The position numbers and the translations under genes are program-made. Positions 30 through 50,516 of a stretch of DNA of 64,000 nucleotides are shown piece by piece. The stretch is taken from the NCBI RefSeq assembly GCF_003018115.1, contig NZ_CP027457.1; one strand, written 5' to 3'. Every line of letters begins with the position of its first letter. Position 1 is the first letter of the stretch. The notes beneath the pieces are model-generated. The model was not told where the DNA came from, did not search any database, and worked only from the letters and a program-made list of their open reading frames with translations. The stretch is from Escherichia coli (GTDB taxonomy: Bacteria; Pseudomonadota; Gammaproteobacteria; Enterobacterales; Enterobacteriaceae).

Positions 30-563
30 TTACTGATATTCAAGAGTGAAGGTAGCCGTGGCATTGATATGCCCCGCAGTGACAGGCACCTGTGTCGCCA
101 TTAGCCGGGCGTAAAAATTCAGCGTATTTGGTTTACCCGGCGTCAGGGTCGTCCACGAAAGCGCGGACGATGGAGCATTAAGGGGTATTTGATTTTGCTG
201 CTCATTCAGAAGCTGTATTCCCAGTCCCGAAGCCGCTGACACCGTATTTTCAAGTGCAAGCAGGTTGGCATTGTGGCTATCTGCAACACCGTTAAACCCA
301 ACTTTTACGGCAGAAACGGCATTACCACAGGGTGACAGCAAAATACGAAATGGAACGACAGGAGTCGTCGCGTCAATGTCGTTAAATTGCTTCGCCGCGT
401 TTTCCATCAAATCAACAGTAAAATTGGTTGATTCAGCGGCCACACTACAGCCGTTATCTCTGACATAGCCGCGGATAGTAATCGTGCTATCCGCAGCCAA
501 AGCGTGACTCACCGCCAGCCACAAAAAAGCGCACAGAAGATAAAAAGGTTTGTTTCTCATCAC
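30..563 (-). CDS. fimF: Type 1 fimbrial minor subunit FimF
   Basis: 177-aa ORF starting [23 protein letters not shown] with a signal peptide and pilin-like sequence; position after fimD. Confidence 0.9.
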
Positions 564-569
564 GCCCCC

Positions 570-3206
570 TTAACGACATTCAGCTGATAGCTGGGTTAAT
601 AACTGCTGCTGACTCTCTGGTGGCAGTTGATAATTGGCGACACAGTGAGCATTTTCCTCTTCTCCCCATTTCACCTGAACTTTTCCCGCTAAAGGCATTC
701 CGCTGAGGTAAACCTGACCATTATCCGCAACAATGCCGCTACTCTGGCTACTCTCTGATGTCACCATCGCCCCAAACGGCAGCGGCTTATTATTGTGAGT
801 TAGCGTCATGAGCAGTTTTATCCCAACGCGCGCTTTAAACTCTGCTCGCACGATCGCCCCACGAGTGGGAACAACGTTAGCGACCGCGTTATCTAAATCG
901 ACGTTATCAGCCAAGGTATTGGTATCCAGCGCCACTCTATTTTCCCGATATTCGGTGGCATAAGGCAGCACGGCATAACCGCGCCAGTCGGTACGCACCC
1001 CCGTCTGGTTTTCGACTTTTGCATCTTTTGCGCCAGGCGCTTTAACAAGTACCACCGTATCGTTTAACGGCTGCCCCAGCGTTACGCCATTGGCATGAGC
1101 CAGTACCCCACCGCTGACTCCGTAATAGAGCTGCTTAATATCATCGCTATGGCTGTAACCGATATTGGCATTGCCGTAACCACCGCGATAATTCAGCGTG
1201 GCGTAGCCTGTACTTCCGCTATTACCATCGCCTCCCCCGGCATAGCCGGTTTGCACGCTATAACTGAGGTTGTTGTCTTCCAGCAACGTACCGTATACAC
1301 CAGCCAGATTGGTCATCCGACCGTTGAGATCGTGTGACATGCTGTAGCTAGCACTGGCATGTCGCCACTGAGATTTACTGTCAGAACGCAGCCAGTGGCT
1401 GAAAGGAATATTGACGTTAAGCGCTAACATCTGATCCCGTCCTTTTTGCCAGGCGTTTTTCGTCAGGCTATAGCTGAGCGTCCAGTTGATATCTTCGAAC
1501 GCAGTATTTAATCCAGCCTGGAATTGCTCATCGACATTACTCGTTCCCCAATAAGTTTGATGGCTACCACTCAAATACAGTGTTGATGTGCGCCCGAGTT
1601 GCTGAGTAACGGTGAGCTGTAATTTCCCGCGTTTGTTATAAGCGAGGTTGTAATAGTCGGTGAATTTCGGCTTAACCTGAATAACTCCGTCCTGTGTTTC
1701 GATGTTGTAGCCATTCATTCGACTGTATGTTGTATCAGCGAAATTAAAATATCCGCTGGTCGAATAACGGTAACCCACTAACTGAATATTCGTGCCTGAC
1801 TCATTGAGCGATTTGTTATAGAGAAAACGAACCGATTGTCCGTCATGCTGACTGTCATCGGGAAGTGTGGAATTAGCCTGAGTCATATCCACAGACAGAG
1901 CGCCCAGTGCCCCCATGTTTTTCCCGATACCGAAATTAAAAGCACGATAACGATCTGCCAGTTGCGTTCCACCATATATTGTCCAGCCAGCCGGAAGGCC
2001 GTGGAGTAATGTACTCTGGAAAAAGCGGGGTTTTTCCTGTTGCGCATTTCCACTACGGTATTCTCCTGCCGTAATGGAATAACGAGTATGCCCTTCACGT
2101 TGCAAAAGCGGGACTGACGAATAGGGTACGGTAAAAATCTGCGTGCTGCCGTCAGCCTCTTTAATCGTTACCTGCAAGTCACCACTATTACCTGCGGCAT
2201 AGATATCGTTGATGGTAAAAGGCCCCGGTGGCACCGTACTATTATAAATGTCATACCCATTTTGTTTAATAGTGACCTGTGCAGTACCACGAGCAATACC
2301 GTGGATCACCGGGGCAAATCCTCTTTGGCTATCGGGTAACATATTGTCATCTGAGGCCAATTGTGCGCCGCGAAAGTTAATACCATCGAAAATATCGCCC
2401 TGAGTATAACCATCACCCAGCGTCAGCCGGGAACGTAACGGTATTATGTCTCGCTCAAGCCAGGTATTGATATGCTGCCATTTATTTTTGCTACCTGATG
2501 ATCTGTCGCTACTGTTATAACTCCAGGTGGTATTGTCGCGTAAACGCCACGCACCAATATTTAACCCACTCTGTAGGTTTAAATATGCATAATGGCTGTT
2601 ACCCCCAATCCGATTCTGTACACTATTTCCGCTGAAATTATAATTGAGCAATCCGGCATTAATACCGGGATCCCATAACTCAGGAGGAATATAACCACGC
2701 GCGCGATTACTCATAAATGCCTGAGGGATCGTCAGGTTGAGTCGCTGCTGACCAACATCCAGATGCGCAGTAGCGTCATGGATCATTGAGGTTAATGGCA
2801 CGCAGGCATCATCCGCCAGCAGATTCATACCGGAGACAGAAGCCGTATTCAGCCCCATACTGGCAAGTTGCGCGCGTGTCAGGCAGGGAACAATCCCTTG
2901 TTCGCTGTCGCCCGTATTAAATGTGACATCACGCGTTGCCATATAACCATTATTCAAATAGATATCGACACGATACGTCCCTGGTGGTAATTCTTGCCCA
3001 TTCTCAAAACGCGATAAATCGGCTACAGCCTGGGGATCATCCGCTAAAAAACGCGGGTTAAAATAGAGTTCGGCAGATGACAAAGGTGCCTGTGCGGCAA
3101 AAGCACAGGCAACAAAGAGCCGGACAAAAAAACCAGCCAAATGATGCTTACGAATATGCAAGCATTGTGTGTTTCGCTGGTAAAGTCTTAAATTCAGATA
3201 TGACAT
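570..3206 (-). CDS. fimD: Fimbrial usher outer membrane protein FimD
   Basis: 878-aa ORF, usher-length, between chaperone fimC and fimF; recognised sequence. Confidence 0.93.
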   Translation of the reverse strand: MSYLNLRLYQRNTQCLHIRKHHLAGFFVRLFVACAFAAQAPLSSAELYFNPRFLADDPQAVADLSRFENGQELPPGTYRVDIYLNNGYMATRDVTFNTGDSEQGIVPCLTRAQLASMGLNTASVSGMNLLADDACVPLTSMIHDATAHLDVGQQRLNLTIPQAFMSNRARGYIPPELWDPGINAGLLNYNFSGNSVQNRIGGNSHYAYLNLQSGLNIGAWRLRDNTTWSYNSSDRSSGSKNKWQHINTWLERDIIPLRSRLTLGDGYTQGDIFDGINFRGAQLASDDNMLPDSQRGFAPVIHGIARGTAQVTIKQNGYDIYNSTVPPGPFTINDIYAAGNSGDLQVTIKEADGSTQIFTVPYSSVPLLQREGHTRYSITAGEYRSGNAQQEKPRFFQSTLLHGLPAGWTIYGGTQLADRYRAFNFGIGKNMGALGALSVDMTQANSTLPDDSQHDGQSVRFLYNKSLNESGTNIQLVGYRYSTSGYFNFADTTYSRMNGYNIETQDGVIQVKPKFTDYYNLAYNKRGKLQLTVTQQLGRTSTLYLSGSHQTYWGTSNVDEQFQAGLNTAFEDINWTLSYSLTKNAWQKGRDQMLALNVNIPFSHWLRSDSKSQWRHASASYSMSHDLNGRMTNLAGVYGTLLEDNNLSYSVQTGYAGGGDGNSGSTGYATLNYRGGYGNANIGYSHSDDIKQLYYGVSGGVLAHANGVTLGQPLNDTVVLVKAPGAKDAKVENQTGVRTDWRGYAVLPYATEYRENRVALDTNTLADNVDLDNAVANVVPTRGAIVRAEFKARVGIKLLMTLTHNNKPLPFGAMVTSESSQSSGIVADNGQVYLSGMPLAGKVQVKWGEEENAHCVANYQLPPESQQQLLTQLSAECR

Positions 3207-3272
3207 TATTCCTCCGGTTTAAAATTACCCGGCAGTCAATTCTTTTTATTCAGGCGAGAAATTCCCCCTGCG

Positions 3273-3998
3273 TTATTCCATTACGCCCGTCATTTTGGGG
3301 GTAAGTGCGCCATAATCATTTATTGTTCGGTAAGTAATATTGCTTCCTGCATCAGAAGGCAATTTAACCGTGCTTTCGCCCATTGGAGGCACCAATGCAT
3401 TTTCAAGAACCCGGGTTCCGGCATTCAACTCTGTTACCGTCAGATAATAGGGTGTCGGGTTAATCAGCGTCAGAGAATTCGCGCTACGACGAAATCTTAA
3501 TTTTTCTGCGGCCTGATCGGGTGGCAACGCTAATTTAGCCGGGCGATAGTACAGTTTAATGCGGCTGATAATTGCGAGCTGTAGCGTATTCTCAGTCAAT
3601 TTTGATTTATCCATTGACGGAATCGCTTTAACATTCATCCAGAATAAACTTTCCCGGTCCTGTGGCAATTGGTTATTTGTTGCATCAAGAATACGCAAGG
3701 TATTCTCTTTTTTTCCCTTCATCGCAAACAGAGGAGGCGTCACGATAAAACGACCATCCTTTACACCATCGGCATTTTCCACCCATGATTGAATTAAATA
3801 GGTACTATTTTCATCATTATTTGTCACGGCAAGTTGCACTTGTTTTTGCCCTGCCGGATAAATTACGCGAGTCGCACCTAAGGCCACTCCCGCTTCAGCG
3901 CGTCCGGCAACCATCATTGCCATGAACATCAGGATACCTGCCAGCAAGCAGAATGTTATTTCCTGCGATTTCCTTACATTGACGTTTTTATTACTCAC
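3273..3998 (-). CDS. fimC: Periplasmic pilus chaperone FimC
   Basis: 241-aa ORF with signal peptide; PapD-like chaperone position between fimI and fimD. Confidence 0.92.
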   Translation of the reverse strand: MSNKNVNVRKSQEITFCLLAGILMFMAMMVAGRAEAGVALGATRVIYPAGQKQVQLAVTNNDENSTYLIQSWVENADGVKDGRFIVTPPLFAMKGKKENTLRILDATNNQLPQDRESLFWMNVKAIPSMDKSKLTENTLQLAIISRIKLYYRPAKLALPPDQAAEKLRFRRSANSLTLINPTPYYLTVTELNAGTRVLENALVPPMGESTVKLPSDAGSNITYRTINDYGALTPKMTGVME

Positions 3999-4034
3999 TG
4001 TCCTGTTCCTGTTATCACATTATCTGCTGAACAA

Positions 4035-4574
4035 TTACTGATAGGTTAAAGAGAACCAGGCCTGGGCATTGGCGATGCCGCCAGTAACCCGACGCCCGGT
4101 AGCACGATATTTGGCGATGAAATGTAGCGAAGTAGAGCCTGAGTAAAGCCGTTTCCAGTTTACTGGAGGACGATTAATCGGTACGAGGTTTCCTTCATCA
4201 TCAAACAACGCTACGCCAATATTGGTGGCTATCCCTGGCCCCTCTCCCACGGAAAGCACATCCGGATTTTTACCATCCGCGACACCGTGAAACGCCACAC
4301 CCACACGTTCACTCACCACCGTGCTACATTCCCGTAAATGAATAACAAAAGGCACCGGTGCGCTATCTTCCCCTACCGCATGAAACCGGTTACTGCTGAT
4401 TTGCCCCATATTGACCGTCATTTGTTTATCACCGGCTTCAATCCGGCAAGTTTCCGCAATAATGACGCCCTGAAATTGCATATTTCCGCCGGGCAGCGTG
4501 GTATTCCATTTATTTCCGGCCAGAGCAAACATTGGCAGCAACGACGCTAATAGAAATAATCTCTTCCTTTTCAT
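4035..4574 (-). CDS. fimI: Fimbrin-like protein FimI
   Basis: Track ORF 4035..4706; internal start [19 protein letters not shown] at 4574 gives a 179-aa pilin-like protein with signal peptide. Confidence 0.85.
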
Positions 4575-4638
4575 CGTTATTTTTATCGCACAAGGGTGGG
4601 CATCCCTGCCCGTAATGACGTCCCTGAACCTGGGTAGG

Positions 4639-5187
4639 TTATTGATACTGAACCTTGAAGGTCGCATCCGCATTAGCTGCGCCAGGGGTTGCGACACCGG
4701 TTGCATAATAACGCGCCTGGAACGGAATGGTGTTAGTACCGTTATTCAGGGTTGTTTGCTCACTGAATGTCGCACCATCCAGCGTCAGCGCAGCACCCGT
4801 TCTGTCCAGGATCTGCACACCAACGTTTGTTGCGCTACCCGCAGCTGAACTCTGCAGAGCCAGAACGTTGGTATGACCCGCATCAATCGCCGTACCTAAA
4901 AAGGCAACTGCGGCTTTAGATGCAACATTGGTATCGCAATCATTCAGCTGAATGTTAAAACCGACAGCAGAACTGGTTGCTCCTTCCTGTGCCAGCGATG
5001 CGGTACGAACCTGTCCTAACTGAACGGTTTGATCAACAGAGCCTGCATCAACTGCGCAAGCGGCGTTAACAACTTCCCCTTTAAAGTGAACGGTCCCACC
5101 ATTAACCGTCGTGGCAGCGGCCAGAGCCGCTGTAGAACTGAGGGACAGAGCCGACAGAACAACGATTGCCAGAGTTTTAATTTTCAT
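4639..5187 (-). CDS. fimA: Type 1 fimbriae major subunit FimA
   Basis: Track ORF 4639..5244; start [23 protein letters not shown] at 5187 gives a 182-aa major pilin. Confidence 0.92.
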
Positions 5188-5306
5188 GCTGCTTTCCTTT
5201 AAAAAAACTATTTCTAAATCGACATGGGCAGTCGTTCTGTACACTTTGTTTTGTCAACGAGTTTGACTGCCAACACTGCACAGTTTTCCCCCAAAAGATG
5301 AAACAT

Positions 5307-5620
5307 TTGGGGCCATTTTGACTCATAGAGGAAAGCATCGCGTACAAACTTTTTCAGTTTATTTGTTGGCTTAATATTCTATTGTTATCTTTATTTATAG
5401 ATTTTTATATTGCATGAGGTGGTTTTTGGAGAGAAGAATGAGGAAGATGCGTCGAGCCACAGAAACGTTAGCTTTACATATAGCGGAGGTGATGTGAAAT
5501 TAATTTACAATAGAAATAATTTACATATCAAACAGTTAGATGCTTTTTGTCGTTTTTTAATATTTTTATGCTTGAGAAAAAATACGTAACTTATTTATGA
5601 TATGGACAGTTTGGCCCCAA
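5307..5620. mobile_element. fimS: fimS invertible element (fim switch), 314 bp bounded by 9-bp inverted repeats TTGGGGCCA (5307-5315) and TGGCCCCAA (5612-5620); apparent OFF orientation
   Basis: Inverted repeats read directly from the sequence at the expected place between fimE and fimA. A sigma70-like promoter TTGAGA-N18-TATGAT lies just inside the fimE-proximal repeat and reads on the + strand, away from fimA. Confidence 0.85.
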
Positions 5621-5667
5621 TTGTCTTGTATTTATTTGTTTTTTAACTTTATTATCAATAAGTTAAA

Positions 5668-6264
5668 TCAAACCTCTTCTCTTTTTAATTTTTCGTTTAT
5701 GAGATTATTTCTTTCCCATAATCCGGCAAAACGAGCAGCATTACTGGCGGTATAACGCACAGTATGGCGAATATTTCGATGCCCGAGATAATCCTGAATT
5801 AAACGAGTATCTGCACCACGCTCCGCCAGTTCATAACCGCAAGCATGCCTTAACATATGAGGATGAGTCTGCGTTACGGTTCCAGCTTCAATACCGGCAT
5901 CGCGAATAATGCGATAGGCCTGCTGGCGAGAAAGCCGACTCCCGCGGCGAGAAATAAATATGGCGTCGGTCCGGTCAGCGCCTTTCCAGTTAGCACGTTC
6001 CAGGGTCCAGCGTTCCACAGCTTCACGCTCATCAAAACGTAACGGGTGAACGGTAGAAAATCCGTTCTTCAGTCGGCGAATATTTATTCGACCTTCATTA
6101 AGGTCAAGATCCTGATAATGCAGATCAAGCAGTTCACTAATACGCATCCCATGCCGATATGCCAACAGAATAAGACAATAATCTCTGGCTCCCGTTGCCC
6201 CGTAACAAACCGCCTGCATCATGGCCTGAACTTCTTTACCGGTAAGATAACGACGTTTACTCAC
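5668..6264 (-). CDS. fimE: Tyrosine site-specific recombinase FimE (switch ON-to-OFF)
   Basis: 198-aa ORF starting MSKRRYLTGKEVQAMM with the conserved HxxR...Y recombinase C-terminus; adjacent to fimS. Confidence 0.93.
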   Translation of the reverse strand: MSKRRYLTGKEVQAMMQAVCYGATGARDYCLILLAYRHGMRISELLDLHYQDLDLNEGRINIRRLKNGFSTVHPLRFDEREAVERWTLERANWKGADRTDAIFISRRGSRLSRQQAYRIIRDAGIEAGTVTQTHPHMLRHACGYELAERGADTRLIQDYLGHRNIRHTVRYTASNAARFAGLWERNNLINEKLKREEV

Positions 6265-6741: not shown

Positions 6742-7344
6742 CTATAAAACAGCGTGACGCTGTCGTCCTCTGGCTCTATCCCAGATGCCGTAAAAACGCC
6801 CTGCATTGCTGGCGGTATACCAGACAGTATGACGAATATTGCGATGCCCAAGATAATCCTGGATAAGTCGCGTATCTATTCCCATATTCGCCAAAGCAAA
6901 ACCACACGAATGGCGTAACATGTGCGGATGAATCTCCAGTGACAACCCGGCATTACCACCGGAAGTCGAGATAATATGGTAAAATTGTTGCCGAGAAAGC
7001 GGATTCCCCTTACGCGATAAAAATACCCACTCGCTCTCAGCATGCGGATACGAAGTACGGATACTCAACCAGTTTTTTAAAGCCTGAACTTCTTTGTTCA
7101 ATAGCGGGTGCGTTGTTGAAAAGCCTTTTTTTAATCGATGGATATATATACACTTTGCCTTAAGATCAATATCCGAAATCCTCAATCGACAAATTTCACT
7201 CGCCCGGAAACCATGAATAAAACAAAGCAAAGTCAGACAATAATTACGTGCTGCATGAGGCCCGGTATTTGCTGCTTTAAGGAGTGATTCGATTTCACTA
7301 TGGGTCAGGAAGTTCCTTTTTTTGTTTTCAGCCTTATTCTTCAT
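6742..7344 (-). CDS. fimB: Tyrosine site-specific recombinase FimB
   Basis: Track ORF 6742..7374; start MKNKAENKKRNFLTHSEIE at 7344 gives 200 aa; paralogue of FimE. Confidence 0.92.
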   Translation of the reverse strand: MKNKAENKKRNFLTHSEIESLLKAANTGPHAARNYCLTLLCFIHGFRASEICRLRISDIDLKAKCIYIHRLKKGFSTTHPLLNKEVQALKNWLSIRTSYPHAESEWVFLSRKGNPLSRQQFYHIISTSGGNAGLSLEIHPHMLRHSCGFALANMGIDTRLIQDYLGHRNIRHTVWYTASNAGRFYGIWDRARGRQRHAVL

Positions 7345-10640: not shown

Positions 10641-10704
10641 CGCTTCAGGGCCCCAGTAAAGGGGCCCTGCTATCAATTTGTCATTTCAATTACGCGAAAT
10701 TTAT

Positions 10705-11685
10705 ATGAACGCAATAATATCGCCTGATTATTACTATGTTCTTACCGTTGCTGGTCAGTCTAATGCCATGGCGTATGGCGAAGGACTGCCATTACCGGAC
10801 AGGGAAGATGCGCCTCATCCAAGAATTAAACAATTAGCGAGATTTGCGCATACGCATCCCGGAGGCCCGTCATGTCACTTTAACGACATTATTCCACTGA
10901 CTCACTGCCCACACGATGTTCAGGATATGCAGAGTTATCACCATCCTCTGGCAACGAATCATCAAACACAGTACGGCACCGTTGGCCAGGCACTGCATAT
11001 TGCACGGAAATTACTGCCCTTTATTCCTGATAACGCAGGGGTTCTCATCGTTCCATGTTGCCGTGGCGGATCGGCTTTTACCGCGGGCAGCGAGGGGACA
11101 TATTCAGAACGGCACGGAGCCAGCCATGATGCTTGTCGTTGGGGAACGGATACTCCGCTGTACCAGGATTTAGTCAGCAGAACGCGAGCCGCACTGGCAA
11201 AAAATCCGCAGAACAAATTCCTCGGCGTATGCTGGATGCAAGGCGAATTTGACTTAATGACCAGTGACTACGCGTCACACCCTCAACACTTTAATCATAT
11301 GGTTGAAGCCTTTCGTAGGGATCTAAAACAATACCATTCTCAGCTGAATAATATTACTGACGCGCCGTGGTTTTGCGGCGATACCACCTGGTACTGGAAA
11401 GAAAATTTCCCTCATGCGTATGAAGCTATTTATGGCAATTATCAAAATAATGTTTTAGCCAATATTATTTTCGTCGACTTCCAGCAACAAGGTGAAAGAG
11501 GACTGACGAACGCGCCTGATGAAGATCCGGACGATTTAAGCACGGGATATTACGGTTCAGCGTACCGGTCACCGGAGAACTGGACGACGGCACTGCGAAG
11601 CAGTCATTTCAGCGCGGCAGCCCGTCGGGGGATTATTTCTGACAAGTTTGTAGAAGCAATTTTGCAGTTTTGGCGCGAAAGGTGA
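10705..11685 (+). CDS. nanS: 9-O-acetyl-N-acetylneuraminate esterase NanS (SGNH hydrolase)
   Basis: Start MNAIISPDYYYVLTVAGQSNAMAYG, 326 aa; GQSN block typical of SGNH esterases. Confidence 0.88.
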   Translation: MNAIISPDYYYVLTVAGQSNAMAYGEGLPLPDREDAPHPRIKQLARFAHTHPGGPSCHFNDIIPLTHCPHDVQDMQSYHHPLATNHQTQYGTVGQALHIARKLLPFIPDNAGVLIVPCCRGGSAFTAGSEGTYSERHGASHDACRWGTDTPLYQDLVSRTRAALAKNPQNKFLGVCWMQGEFDLMTSDYASHPQHFNHMVEAFRRDLKQYHSQLNNITDAPWFCGDTTWYWKENFPHAYEAIYGNYQNNVLANIIFVDFQQQGERGLTNAPDEDPDDLSTGYYGSAYRSPENWTTALRSSHFSAAARRGIISDKFVEAILQFWRER

Positions 11686-11839
11686 GCGTTCATTAATTTG
11701 ATTTATTCGCATCCATCAGCGCTTTTAACTCCTCCGGCGTAAACGGTGGTTTGCGTCGGTGCAACATCGCATGGCAATTAGGGCACACAGGCAGCAAAAA
11801 AACAAATGAGATCAAAGTAATATATCTTCACTTGCAGGC

Positions 11840-12769
11840 TTGAACAGCAGAAAATTTGCGAGCATGATCGCAATTATTTCACTGCCAGGGATATCAATGG
11901 CTTCCAGTAAATCGCTACAGCAGGCAATTGCCAACATAAAAATCTGGCACAAGGGTGAACAGCGCGCGCCGCATAAGCCATTGTTATTGCTATACGTATT
12001 AGCGGGATACCTGAATGGACATCCACGCCTTTTCGATTATGGCTCGGAAATCTACGAACCTCTGCACAGTTTACTGGAACGTTTTGGGCCACAGCGTTCA
12101 CAGTACCGACCTGATATGCCGTTCTGGCGATTACAAGGCGACGGATTCTGGCAATTACACAATGCCGAGCTTTGCTCAACAGCAGGGAGCAGCCGACAAC
12201 CGCCAGTGAAGGAACTGAACGAATACCACGTTGCAGGCGGTTTCGATGAACAGCACTACGCCCTGGTAACCGGCAATAAAAAACTCATTAATACTCTGGC
12301 ACAACAGATACTCGAAGCGCACTTCACCGAGAGTATTCAGGAAGAAATCGCTGACGAGTTGGGTTTTGACCTCCAGCAAATCCGTAAGCAACGCGACCCG
12401 TTATTTCGCAGACTTGTATTACGCGCCTATAACTACCAGTGCGCGATATGTGGCTTTAATATGCGCCACGATGACACTACCGTCGCGCTGGAAGCGGCAC
12501 ATATAAAATGGAAACAGCACGGCGGTCTTTGTGAAATTCCTAATGGCCTGGCGCTTTGCGCAATTCACCATAAAGCCTTTGATAAAGGATCGATTGGCCT
12601 GGACGAAAATATGCGGGTACTGGTATCAGATGCGGTAAACGGCGGAGGGATCGTTGAGAGATTATTCTGGGATTTTGACGGGAAAACTATTGCGTTACCA
12701 CAGGTGCGTAAAAATTACCCTTTTGAGGGGTTTGTAGAGTGGCATCGGAAAGAGGTTTTTAGGGGGTGA
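11840..12769 (+). CDS. HNH-motif endonuclease with an uncharacterised N-terminal domain (possible modification-dependent restriction-type nuclease)
   Basis: 309-aa ORF; C-terminal YQCAICGF...AAHIKW...LCAIHHKAFDKG is a Cys/His HNH-type motif. An alternative start MASSKSLQQ at 11897 has an AGGGA RBS. Family assignment of the N-terminal domain is not possible by eye. Confidence 0.7.
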   Translation: MNSRKFASMIAIISLPGISMASSKSLQQAIANIKIWHKGEQRAPHKPLLLLYVLAGYLNGHPRLFDYGSEIYEPLHSLLERFGPQRSQYRPDMPFWRLQGDGFWQLHNAELCSTAGSSRQPPVKELNEYHVAGGFDEQHYALVTGNKKLINTLAQQILEAHFTESIQEEIADELGFDLQQIRKQRDPLFRRLVLRAYNYQCAICGFNMRHDDTTVALEAAHIKWKQHGGLCEIPNGLALCAIHHKAFDKGSIGLDENMRVLVSDAVNGGGIVERLFWDFDGKTIALPQVRKNYPFEGFVEWHRKEVFRG

Positions 12770-12810
12770 GATTGATAACTATCGCAGTATGTTCAATATT
12801 GCTGACATAA

Positions 12811-12993
12811 TCAGTGCAGGATCTTGCCGCTAGTTTACAACTCGCCTTCGATAGCGGCGCAAAACGAGTTCTGTTGCCGATATCCTCGGCTATGGATATT
12901 CCAACAGTTCCGGCAGAGTTGTTTACCAAGTTTCAGGTAAGTTTTTTCTCAGAACCGGTTGATGCGGTTTATAAGGCGCTGGATGTGAATTAA
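12811..12993 (+). pseudogene. Remnant encoding the C-terminal ~60 aa of a Lon-like protease domain (BrxL/Lon-type)
   Basis: Frame opens just after a TAA at 12808-12810 and reads ...SGAKRVLLPISSAMDIPTVPAELFTKFQVSFFSEPVDAVYKALDVN*, which resembles the extreme C-terminus of Lon proteases (...GIKTVLIP...IP...V...EVL..AL). No upstream body of the gene is present. Confidence 0.5.
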
Positions 12994-13326
12994 CACATTC
13001 CTCAGCTTATTTACAAAAGGATTATTCCCATTTGATATAATATCAGTGCCAATTTACTTTTTTCAATGAAATATATCTCGGCTAAATAACAATAAAACTT
13101 ATCGCTAATGGATTAAATAAACAATTTTCTAATTCATTTCACCACCTTTGATATAGAAATTGATGGTGTTGTCGTTGCCATTGCTTATGGTGATGATAAA
13201 ATCCACGTTTCTGGATCGTTGCGTAGAAAATCATCACTGCCTTGATATTTTGATGCGATATAATCATACCGTTCCGTAGTACCAATTTCAATTTCAGGCT
13301 AAACCCCAACATTAAAAAAAATTAGA

Positions 13327-13375
13327 GTTATTCACTGATTATATTATATTATCAATAATATAATCAGTGAATAAC
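13327..13375 (-). terminator. Perfect 21-bp inverted repeat (7-nt loop) downstream of the 682-aa ORF, followed on the minus strand by a T8 run; probable intrinsic terminator
   Basis: GTTATTCACTGATTATATTAT / ATAATATAATCAGTGAATAAC arms read directly; T-run lies about 6 nt past the stem on the minus strand. Confidence 0.55.
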
Positions 13376-13397
13376 ATGGACTATATAATAAATTGCT

Positions 13398-15446
13398 CTA
13401 ATCATTTCCCTTACGAATATATGGGCCAAAAGCCCAAGAATCATAATAAGGGTGATGGACTAATTTTTCATTAAATCGAACACTATAAGTTAATTTTTTT
13501 ATATTTTTACGTACAGCATTAATACTGGGCAAAGAGGAAAGATAATCTATAAACTTATCGATAGTGATTTCCCCTTCGCAACACTCAAACCCATCAATGA
13601 TATTTTTCGCCATTTTTCCATTTTCATTTGTTTGATATATCACTCCAGGTATTCGTTGAAAAAAACTAGATAATGCATATTTGTCCGCTACATATGTATC
13701 ATCCACATGATATTTCCCACCGAGCATAGTTGTAGTAACAATAAGCTTATACACACCTTTGGGTTGCCATGTTGATGGTAGTTCGAATTCTTTAATGATC
13801 ACATCAAGATGATTAAGATAATGTTCAGAAATTCGATTTATTTGTTGAAAATAAGAACGCATAAATTTATTATTATGATCATGTATTAATGAGCTATCTC
13901 CAACGATGTTACACACTTGCTGATAGTACTTACCATAATATATTGGTTGACCATTTGATTTTAGTTCTGTAAAAATCAAAAAATCATCCAGGAGAATCAC
14001 GCAATCGCACTGATAATTAGCATGAGCATCAATTGAAGAAGCTTTAATCCCCGCATCACGAACTTGTTTTATAAATTGTTGCTCATGAAATCGCCCTTTA
14101 CTTGCTTGAGAAATTTTTTTGGAACCAAATAATGACATTAGAGAGCGAGTCACTGAGCTATTTGCTATTAATGCAGGCATTAAGCATAAACCGTCCATAC
14201 AGGGAATAAATGGGCAATCATTAAGATCATGTGATTTTGAATTGAAGGTAAAATAATCTATCAGTTTTTTTGCTGCATCCGCTGCAATCCCCTTACGTTG
14301 AAAGAATGATAACCAACTCTCACGGCTTTTTATGATCAGCCAGCGATCCAACTGTAGGGGTATAGGTTTTGTCGATGAAAATCTTTTGCTCATTTCTTCT
14401 TTAGATAACTCGACTAAACATTGATAAGCGTGCACCCAATTAAATAATGATATATTCCCATATTCTTCATGAAGGTCATCAGGAGACATATTTTCCAACT
14501 CGCTTAGATGAAATGAGCTAAAAACGCCATCAGAATTTAAGTAAGATGGCATATGATCCTTTACCCAACTATTTAGATGAAAATGTTTGTTACTAAATTC
14601 ATGAACTTCGCTATATAGATGTGACGCTCTCATCATTAGTCTATTTCTTGCAATCTCATAATCTCGGTATAAACAAAAACTATCAACCTCAAGAGAGTAA
14701 ATGTTATTATCCAATTTTGTAAATACTGCACTACTTAGTCTGAAAAAGTCTCTTACTCTGCTTAATGAGTCAAAAACATTCCACTCATTAAGGTACCCTC
14801 CCATTGAAAGCAAGGTTTGTTTATTCACACAAGAAGTTAGTTTCAATGGCCCATGAGTCCGTAAATAAGAAAATATTCTTCCGGTGTAATTGGCTACCTC
14901 ATCAAATGCCCTATCGATAACTCGAAAATATTCGATATCAGGTTCAGCATGAATATTAATATTTTCAGAAACGATAAATAATGGAAAAATCCTCTTCATT
15001 TTTTTAGGATCATTGACCACAACCAAGGATGATAATGATGATAAAAACATCTCACAAAACATGATGAGATTAAGTATTAATGCATGTGATTTTTTTGTAT
15101 TTTTACGCCAAATACCAGCACATTTTGTAGCCGCAAAGAAAGAATTATTTATATCATGCATAATTTTACATTGACTCTCGAACTCAGAGATTAGTTCAAT
15201 GTTATCAGGAAATGAGTTTACTAGCTCATTAATACATTTTTTGAATGTATTGTTATACTCAACTTCAGTCTGAACTGAAAATCTATTATAATAGATGGAA
15301 GATATTCTCAGCACATCCAAGGCGATATCTATACTAATATCATCTCTTTTTATGTACTCACAAAAAAAAGAACAAAACTGTTTCGGGTCGTTAGCAAGAT
15401 TACTAATTCTAGTAGTATCATAAACTTTTTCCATTTTTCCATACAT
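13398..15446 (-). CDS. Orphan AT-rich 682-aa protein of unknown function; candidate defence or nuclease protein with a possible PD-(D/E)XK-like motif
   Basis: Uninterrupted 2 kb ORF with RBS AGGA before the ATG; composition visibly far more AT-rich than flanking core genes; no Walker A, HNH or other motif I recognise except E~455 ... D~481 ... E494-L-K496 (QCDCVILLDDFLIFTELK). Confidence 0.75.
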   Translation of the reverse strand: MYGKMEKVYDTTRISNLANDPKQFCSFFCEYIKRDDISIDIALDVLRISSIYYNRFSVQTEVEYNNTFKKCINELVNSFPDNIELISEFESQCKIMHDINNSFFAATKCAGIWRKNTKKSHALILNLIMFCEMFLSSLSSLVVVNDPKKMKRIFPLFIVSENINIHAEPDIEYFRVIDRAFDEVANYTGRIFSYLRTHGPLKLTSCVNKQTLLSMGGYLNEWNVFDSLSRVRDFFRLSSAVFTKLDNNIYSLEVDSFCLYRDYEIARNRLMMRASHLYSEVHEFSNKHFHLNSWVKDHMPSYLNSDGVFSSFHLSELENMSPDDLHEEYGNISLFNWVHAYQCLVELSKEEMSKRFSSTKPIPLQLDRWLIIKSRESWLSFFQRKGIAADAAKKLIDYFTFNSKSHDLNDCPFIPCMDGLCLMPALIANSSVTRSLMSLFGSKKISQASKGRFHEQQFIKQVRDAGIKASSIDAHANYQCDCVILLDDFLIFTELKSNGQPIYYGKYYQQVCNIVGDSSLIHDHNNKFMRSYFQQINRISEHYLNHLDVIIKEFELPSTWQPKGVYKLIVTTTMLGGKYHVDDTYVADKYALSSFFQRIPGVIYQTNENGKMAKNIIDGFECCEGEITIDKFIDYLSSLPSINAVRKNIKKLTYSVRFNEKLVHHPYYDSWAFGPYIRKGND

Positions 15447-16123
15447 CCTATTGTCTAAATTACTATAAAACTAGCCACTTAACTAATAATTATAAATTTC
15501 ATCTTTTACACCTTGCATTTTTATAACCAATGAAATCTACAACAAGCAACTGATGGATAATCCGATATTGGTCGCATTTAATGGCATGGTAGCAAAGTTT
15601 TCATCACATACCTCCTTTGCACCAGAATAAACGCCAGAGACCTGAAATTGCGAGTACACTACAGAAATTGTACTGCCGGTCCCATCAGCATAAAACCATA
15701 GTTACACAGGTAATCATCATTATTCGCCAAGATAATAAATATTATTCGGTAGAATAGCGTTCTCAGGTGGTCAGTAAAATTGTCTTCAACAAGATGTCTG
15801 CGCATCTCGTCTGCTAGCCCTACATAACTGCTCTCGACCGAAACTATTTATTGAATGTTCACCAAGGTGGGCGTGGAGACAAAATGACGTCTTTTGATAT
15901 TAGCTACCTGAGCCACATGGTCAAAACGTTCAAGTAGCATAGCGAAACCACCCTGCCCACGTAATGTGGACGATGCAGCTTCCAGCCAGAGCAAACTTGG
16001 GACCATCGACTACAAAATGAAGAATACTGAACTGCTTTTCTGGCAGGCCTATATACTGCACGGATATGGGTGATTTCAGGCACAAAAAAAGCCGCCCTTA
16101 AGCGACTCGATTTGCATACGGTG

Positions 16124-16208
16124 TGGTGCCGAAGGCCGGACTCGAACCGGCACGTATTTCTACGGTTGATTTTGAATCAACTGCGTCTACCGATTTCGCC
16201 ACTTCGGC
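16124..16208 (-). tRNA. leuX: tRNA-Leu (leuX-type, CAA anticodon), 85 nt ending CCA
   Basis: Reverse complement reads GCCGAAGTGGCGAAATCGGTAGACGCAGTTGATTCAAAATCAACCGTAGAAATACGTGCCGGTTCGAGTCCGGCCTTCGGCACCA; type II tRNA with long variable arm. Confidence 0.9.
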
Positions 16209-16403
16209 ACTGAAGAGGTATGCGGAAAACGTTGTGGATTATACCTGTCGCACGCCACCATGCAAGCGCCAGCTTGCTCGCACCTCGCTAAGTGCTGAAA
16301 TTTTCAGCATTGCATACAGCGATGTGTAACCTTTGTCACACTCCAGGCACCCCGCCCTGCCATGCTCTACACTTCCCAGACAACACCAGAGAAGGACCAA
16401 AAA

Positions 16404-40045: not shown

Positions 40046-40185
40046 AAGGAGTCCCTCCGCACTGTCTGAAACAGTACAGAAATGTCTTCAGGCGTGGCGA
40101 AGCCTTACCTGAAGGTAATAAAGCTGAGCAGGGACGTTAAAACGTCACGGCCTTACGCATCCGGTAACGCCGTGAAAAGACGGGC

Positions 40186-40239
40186 TTACCGGAAAAGTTT
40201 TAATCTCCGTCGAGGGAGAGGCGTGGGATCAGGTTCCAT
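40186..40239 (-). CDS. mgtL: mgtA leader peptide MgtL
   Basis: 17-codon proline-rich [20 protein letters not shown] upstream of mgtA in the leader region. Confidence 0.8.
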
Positions 40240-40423
40240 ATAACCTCCGGTAAGTGAAAAAAGCGCCGCAAATAATAAGGAGAATCCAATAATATTCGTA
40301 GCATCTATGGCGATATAATACCTGCTGGCAACTAAACCAACGATAAACCAGACTTTACCCATTGCTGAATGCACGGGTAAAGTTAGGCTCAAATAATTAA
40401 ACAACACGTTACGGGACAACAGG

Positions 40424-41371
40424 ATGCAAAATCGGCTGACCATCAAAGACATCGCGCGCTTAAGCGGCGTGGGGAAATCTACGGTTTCCCGGGTGCTGAA
40501 TAACGAAAGCGGCGTGAGCCAGCGTACGCGCGAGCGTGTTGAAGCAGTGATGAATCAGCATGGATTTTCCCCTTCCCGTTCTGCACGCGCTATGCGTGGG
40601 CAAAGCGATAAAGTGGTCGCCATCATTGTCACCCGTCTGGATTCGTTGTCAGAAAATCTCGCCGTTCAAACCATGCTGCCAGCGTTCTATGAACAAGGTT
40701 ACGATCCAATCATGATGGAAAGTCAGTTTTCCCCGCAATTAGTTGCCGAACATTTGGGGGTGCTGAAACGGCGTAATATCGACGGCGTAGTGCTGTTCGG
40801 TTTTACCGGCATAACAGAAGAAATGTTAGCCCACTGGCAGTCATCGCTGGTTCTGCTGGCGCGTGACGCAAAAGGCTTTGCTTCGGTCTGTTATGACGAC
40901 GAAGGGGCAATCAAGATCCTGATGCAACGGCTGTATGACCAGGGGCATCGTAATATCAGTTATCTCGGCGTGCCGCACAGTGACGTGACGACCGGTAAGC
41001 GACGTCACGAAGCCTACCTGGCGTTCTGCAAAGCGCATAAACTGCATCCCGTTGCCGCTCTGCCAGGGCTTGCTATGAAGCAAGGCTATGAGAACGTGGC
41101 AAAAGTGATTACGCCTGAAACTACTGCGTTACTGTGCGCAACCGACACGCTGGCACTTGGCGCAAGTAAATACCTGCAAGAGCAACGCATCGACACCTTG
41201 CAACTGGCGAGCGTCGGTAATACACCGTTAATGAAATTCCTCCATCCGGAGATCGTCACCGTAGATCCCGGTTACGCCGAAGCTGGACGCCAGGCGGCCT
41301 GCCAGTTGATCGCACAGGTAACCGGGCGCAGCGAACCGCAACAAATCATCATCCCCGCCACCCTGTCCTGA
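40424..41371 (+). CDS. treR: Trehalose operon repressor TreR (LacI family)
   Basis: 315-aa ORF with N-terminal HTH (TIKDIARLSGVGKSTVSRVLN). Confidence 0.93.
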   Translation: MQNRLTIKDIARLSGVGKSTVSRVLNNESGVSQRTRERVEAVMNQHGFSPSRSARAMRGQSDKVVAIIVTRLDSLSENLAVQTMLPAFYEQGYDPIMMESQFSPQLVAEHLGVLKRRNIDGVVLFGFTGITEEMLAHWQSSLVLLARDAKGFASVCYDDEGAIKILMQRLYDQGHRNISYLGVPHSDVTTGKRRHEAYLAFCKAHKLHPVAALPGLAMKQGYENVAKVITPETTALLCATDTLALGASKYLQEQRIDTLQLASVGNTPLMKFLHPEIVTVDPGYAEAGRQAACQLIAQVTGRSEPQQIIIPATLS

Positions 41372-50408: not shown

Positions 50409-50516
50409 TGCCGGATGCGGTGCACCTGTAGGCCTGATAAGACGCATCAAGCGTCGCATCAGGCACTATGCTCAAATGCCGGATGCGGCGTGAACGCCTT
50501 ATCCGGCCTACGCACA
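50409..50516. repeat. REP/BIME cluster between yjgA and mpl
   Basis: GCCGGATGCGG... and GTAGGCCTGATAAGACGC...GCGTCGCATCAGGC units. Confidence 0.85.

Follow-up and report, generated by a model that had tools for sequence, protein, structure and literature searches.

The invertible fim switch of an Escherichia coli genome in its OFF orientation: anatomy, in-silico orientation assays and frequency among complete genomes

Phase variation at the fim switch, fimS, has been textbook knowledge since 1985, and in Escherichia coli O157:H7 the switch is locked OFF by a deletion that prevents its inversion. The element is defined as a 314-bp segment bounded by 9-bp inverted repeats (PMC8777976, PMC2647292). 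A promoter lies inside fimS, and of the two recombinases FimE strongly favours the ON-to-OFF inversion and dominates FimB; a Rho-dependent terminator, also located inside the element, acts on fimE only in the OFF state, in which the fimE mRNA is shortened and destabilised (PMC2647292, PMC9993118). Inversion of a promoter by tyrosine recombinases at short inverted repeats, as at fimS, is also described for hyxS and ipuS, which are found at other loci (PMC6458436). In the accepted scheme, the fimAICDFGH operon has its promoter within fimS, and the tyrosine recombinases encoded by the linked genes fimB and fimE invert the element. In the ON orientation, PfimA inside fimS drives fimAICDFGH and, in the OFF orientation, this promoter is uncoupled from fimA. 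The analysis reported here concerns the anatomy, orientation and intactness of one such switch and its frequency among assemblies, while promoter activity, terminator coupling and phenotype are taken from the literature.

The locus lies near one end of a 64,000-nucleotide stretch of E. coli DNA (contig NZ_CP027457.1), referred to here as the window. According to the open reading frames, the annotation of a near-identical genome and the alignment to MG1655, fimS is placed between fimE and fimA, directly upstream of the fimAICDFGH operon. The features of the locus are as follows.

30..4574, minus strand: fimI, fimC, fimD and fimF (open reading frames and annotation of the near-identical NZ_CP024223.1)
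4639..5187, minus strand: fimA, major type 1 fimbrial subunit (open reading frame list and annotation of the near-identical genome)
5288..5422, no strand: promoter-distal end of fimS, comprising the LRP-1/LRP-2/Fis binding region and the IRR junction, equal to a published 135-bp EMSA probe
5307..5620, no strand: fimS invertible element, 314 bp, OFF orientation (MG1655 alignment and three in-silico assays)
5307..5315, no strand: IRR, the fimA-proximal 9-bp inverted repeat, TTGGGGCCA on the plus strand
5320..5324, no strand: HinfI site GACTC, used in a published phase assay
5339..5342, no strand: BstUI site CGCG, the sole one in the OL4-OL20 amplicon (5153-5879) and the basis of a published orientation assay
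5572..5601, plus strand: PfimA-like promoter, TTGAGA at 5572-5577, an 18-nt spacer and TATGAT at 5596-5601 (consensus scan)
5612..5620, no strand: IRL, the fimE-proximal 9-bp inverted repeat, TGGCCCCAA on the plus strand, the reverse complement of TTGGGGCCA
5668..6264, minus strand: fimE, tyrosine recombinase (ON-to-OFF), 198 aa, intact (open reading frame list and annotation of the near-identical genome)
6742..7344, minus strand: fimB, tyrosine recombinase (both directions), 200 aa, intact (open reading frame list and annotation of the near-identical genome)

From repeat to repeat, fimS spans exactly 314 bp, and both 9-bp repeats are perfect and stand at the coordinates at which a preliminary description of the window had reported them intact (5307-5315 and 5612-5620). 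The ATG of fimA was likewise found where that description had put it, at minus-strand position 5187, and lies 119 nt past the fimA-proximal repeat. On the other side, the stop codon of fimE (5668-5670) lies 47 nt past the fimE-proximal repeat. The genes fimG and fimH fall outside the 64-kb window. The spacer between fimA and fimI carries in MG1655 an annotated sRNA, fimR2 (b4838), and a matching spacer is present in the window at about 4594-4628 on the minus strand.

A 9-bp inverted pair by itself proves nothing about a switch, as the window holds 35 perfect 9-bp inverted pairs with a spacing of 250-350 bp. The identity of fimS rests instead on its position between fimE and fimA and on its 99% identity and colinearity, together with its flanks, with the switch of MG1655 (NC_000913.3, between fimE b4313 and fimA b4314), from which it differs by two SNPs within the element. 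The 314-bp length, the 9-bp repeats, the flanks and the OFF orientation are all shared by the two strains. The differences between MG1655 and the window comprise a few SNPs in the flanks, among them an A-run shortened by 1 bp in the fimE-IRL spacer, four FimA substitutions, and the replacements Q88L in FimE and D6E in FimB. The switch of the uropathogenic strain UTI89 (NC_007946.1) agrees with that of the window in length, repeats, promoter position and orientation and differs by a few SNPs, such as those in the spacer beside IRL and beside the BstUI site. A third copy of the 9-mer (TGGCCCCAA), at 57211-57219, was considered as a further switch and rejected as a chance occurrence, since it lies inside ytfQ and 35 similar pairs exist in the window. 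Altogether, we regard the region, with very high confidence, as the canonical E. coli fim switch in its OFF state.

Orientation was read with published assays run in silico on the window as it stands and on a version in which 5307-5620 had been artificially inverted. Primers OL4 and OL20 give a product of 727 bp that BstUI cuts into 188 and 539 bp in the window as is and into 434 and 293 bp after inversion, the published sizes being 187 and 539 bp for OFF and 433 and 293 bp for ON (PMC9993118). The Phase_L/Phase_R product of 559 bp is cut by HinfI into 198 and 361 bp as is and into 481 and 78 bp after inversion, with published bands of 359 bp for OFF and 489 bp for ON (PMC4349694). In a third assay, primers 1 and 2 yield 884 bp and primers 1 and 3 no product from the window as is, while the inverted version yields nothing from the 1-2 pair and 412 bp from the 1-3 pair; the published assignment is OFF for 884 bp from the 1-2 pair and ON for 394 bp from the 1-3 pair (PMC11968103, eLife).

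The placement of the ends of the element points the same way. The primers BSFORBIO and BSREVBIO (PMC9993118) map convergently at 5288-5422, where they delimit 135 bp in the window as is and give no product after inversion. The 135-bp Lrp/Fis probe that they define spans the “fimA promoter-distal end” (PMC9993118), and in the window this promoter-distal Lrp/Fis end adjoins fimA. The reference genome of UTI89 is stated to carry fimS in the OFF orientation (PMC6458436), and the arrangement of fimS is identical in the window, MG1655 and UTI89. All five lines, namely the three assays, the UTI89 arrangement and the Lrp/Fis probe, support the OFF orientation. The converse is provided by E. coli SC418 (NZ_LR778147.1), a natural ON genome, whose element and flanks share 99.7% identity with the window once the latter has been artificially inverted at fimS. 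Its element is inverted relative to that of the window, with TTGAGA-N18-TATGAT directed toward fimA and the BstUI/Lrp end toward fimE. The preliminary description had already read the sequence as the OFF state, and the BstUI, HinfI and primer 1-2 assays, the match to UTI89 and the position of the Lrp/Fis end all agree with it. It had also suggested an alignment to reference switches and an orientation-specific PCR or restriction assay as checks. In the former, the element is colinear with MG1655 fimS and matches the UTI89 arrangement, so that the alignment does not turn the arrangement into ON; the latter, carried out in silico, returned the OFF patterns of three published assays.

Within 5100-5800, the top-scoring site of a sigma-70 consensus scan is TTGAGA-N18-TATGAT, with 10 of 12 positions matching the consensus, a score that reflects a consensus match only; the scan returned 3 sites where 2.2 are expected. 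This putative promoter ends 10 nt short of the fimE-proximal repeat, is directed toward fimE and away from fimA, and stands at the end of fimS opposite the published promoter-distal Lrp/Fis end. The same site had been singled out in the preliminary description as the best match on the plus strand, beside the fimE-proximal repeat and reading toward fimE; the motif, strand, position and direction stand, and the coordinates given then (about 5575-5605) were off by 3-4 bp, the actual ones being 5572-5601. We take the two hexamers to be those of the fimA promoter mapped by Olsen and Klemm in 1994 and by O'Gara and Dorman in 2000; a full-text literature search for the hexamer sequences returned irrelevant papers only. 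The OFF call does not depend on TTGAGA/TATGAT being the mapped fimA promoter.

In the state represented by the window, the end of the element carrying the Lrp, Fis and BstUI sites abuts fimA; fimA would therefore receive no promoter from the switch, which would leave the cell without fimbriae. PfimA would at the same time fire antisense toward the 3′ end of fimE, and fimE would be joined to the Rho-dependent terminator. Because FimE drives the ON-to-OFF inversion and dominates FimB, OFF is the expected default state.

The frequency of each orientation was determined with a 651-bp query, required to be at least 80% covered in one place, against 5,426 complete E. coli genomes. The query as is (OFF) was found in 4,457 of the 5,426 genomes, and the same query with fimS inverted (ON) in 248, so that both orientations occur among complete E. 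coli assemblies; the 4,705 classifiable genomes divide into 94.7% OFF and 5.3% ON. The three closest genomes (O169:H41 2014EL-1345-2, F8111-1SC3 and LR882990) are all OFF and 100% identical across the switch, as expected at a base rate of about 95%. OFF is the state of the reference genomes and of most deposited assemblies. Its finding here is correct but ordinary, as the biology is already known and the switch is in its default position, and in itself matters little. The counts of 4,457 OFF and 248 ON nevertheless provide a useful base rate against which other reports of a switch being OFF can be judged. Moreover, fimS is unmarked in all RefSeq records examined. Annotation pipelines leave the element unannotated, and when an assembly is OFF, looking for promoters upstream of fimA will miss that of the operon.

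From its sequence, the switch looks able to flip and does not seem locked, because it has the 314-bp length, perfect repeats and full-length FimB and FimE. FimE has no internal stop and carries a single substitution, Q88L, relative to K-12 MG1655 and to UTI89, both of which have Q at this position. FimB is also uninterrupted and likewise departs from both strains by a single substitution, D6E. Both recombinases have the H-x-x-R motif and the C-terminal tyrosine at positions common with K-12 and UTI89. A deletion, broken repeats and a truncated recombinase were sought in fimS, FimB and FimE, and none was found; the element is of full length, unlike the locked-OFF fimS of O157:H7 with its deletion.

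Three other readings of the locus deserve consideration. The arrangement could truly be ON, with the real fimA promoter in the part of fimS nearest fimA and TTGAGA-N18-TATGAT an incidental match, a reading that is almost certainly wrong. The promoter scan, being a consensus match only with 3 sites for 2.2 expected, would leave room for it, and a preprint (10.1101/840991) labels a PCR product of the window's orientation, the 884-bp product of primers 1 and 2, as ON. However, the peer-reviewed eLife version (PMC11968103) reverses this label to OFF, assays from three independent laboratories give OFF, UTI89, which is stated to be OFF, is arranged identically, and the end of fimS that faces fimA in the window is the one published as “promoter-distal.” The ON label of the preprint was set aside as an error, since the eLife labelling, the sequence geometry and the two restriction assays disagree with it. 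The sites of the primers concerned by this inconsistency in the literature lie within 4460-5995 of the window.

The OFF orientation being retained, it could still reflect genotype and not phase if the lineage were locked OFF by mutation, through the two SNPs in fimS or through FimE Q88L or FimB D6E, in a manner comparable to the deletion of O157:H7. Such a lock would seem very improbable. All three near-identical assemblies are also OFF, but with about 95% of genomes in this state four of four would be expected by chance (0.947^4, about 0.8). L88 of FimE is unlike the residue of K-12 and UTI89, yet a defect in FimE would favour ON instead, and one of the SNP positions is also variable among MG1655, UTI89 and SC418. 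The complete 314-bp element with perfect repeats and the two full-length recombinases, with their H-x-x-R and C-terminal tyrosine positions as in K-12 and UTI89, also argue against a lock. For the O169:H41-like lineage to which the window belongs, we see only a very slight chance that the switch is biased or locked OFF via changes specific to this lineage, namely FimE Q88L, FimB D6E and the LRP-2-IRR SNP; if it were, type 1 fimbriation would be constitutively low in an enterotoxigenic (ETEC) O169:H41-like background. It is unlikely, with somewhat more to be said for it, that the source culture was substantially mixed (e.g., more than 10% ON) and that the assembler gave the majority, in which case the OFF call would say little about the population. 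fimS is phase variable by design and 248 complete assemblies are ON, but an intact FimE with a dominant ON-to-OFF activity would leave standard cultures mostly OFF; a mixture cannot show in one consensus sequence. The canonical switch in its OFF state remains the preferred reading, and the OFF call describes the state that prevailed in the culture when it was sequenced, as a consensus shows only the majority of a phase-variable population.

Several other observations were made elsewhere in the window. A small islet at 10700-16210 lies beside a tRNA-Leu gene (16127-16208, minus strand; probably leuX) and contains a truncated nanS and fragments of HNH endonucleases. It also encodes a 290-aa HNH_2 endonuclease (11897-12769, plus strand) that matches PADLOC models for HNH and for type IV methyl-directed restriction and bears the RefSeq name “phosphorothioated DNA-binding restriction endonuclease.” A 678-aa open reading frame of the same islet (13398-15434, minus strand) is without a Pfam family and has a weak PADLOC match to PDC-M29B (E 0.002).

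Of the 70 SNPs that separate window positions 1-39400 from the closest genome, NZ_CP024223.1, 59 are concentrated in valS-yjgN-yjgM-rraB-argF (25979-30164), a cluster that looks like a recombination tract, and yjgL has an 18-bp deletion at position 31525. Elsewhere, the window shows near or full identity.

Repeats of the naRNA4 (REP325-type) family occur in two intergenic spacers, as two tandem copies at 23251-23422 between pepA and holC, within a periodic repeat of roughly 96 bp (23179-23477), and as one copy at 50431-50508 between yjgA and mpl. A strong Rfam match to the Yersinia sRNA Ysr276 (180 bits) at 22223-22417 on the minus strand is antisense within the coding region of pepA and is probably due to conservation of the coding sequence and not to an RNA gene of its own. 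Finally, treR (about 40421-41371) is annotated as partial, with its N-terminus missing, in a 100%-identical relative genome, and adjoins the mgtA Mg riboswitch (40139-40254, minus strand).
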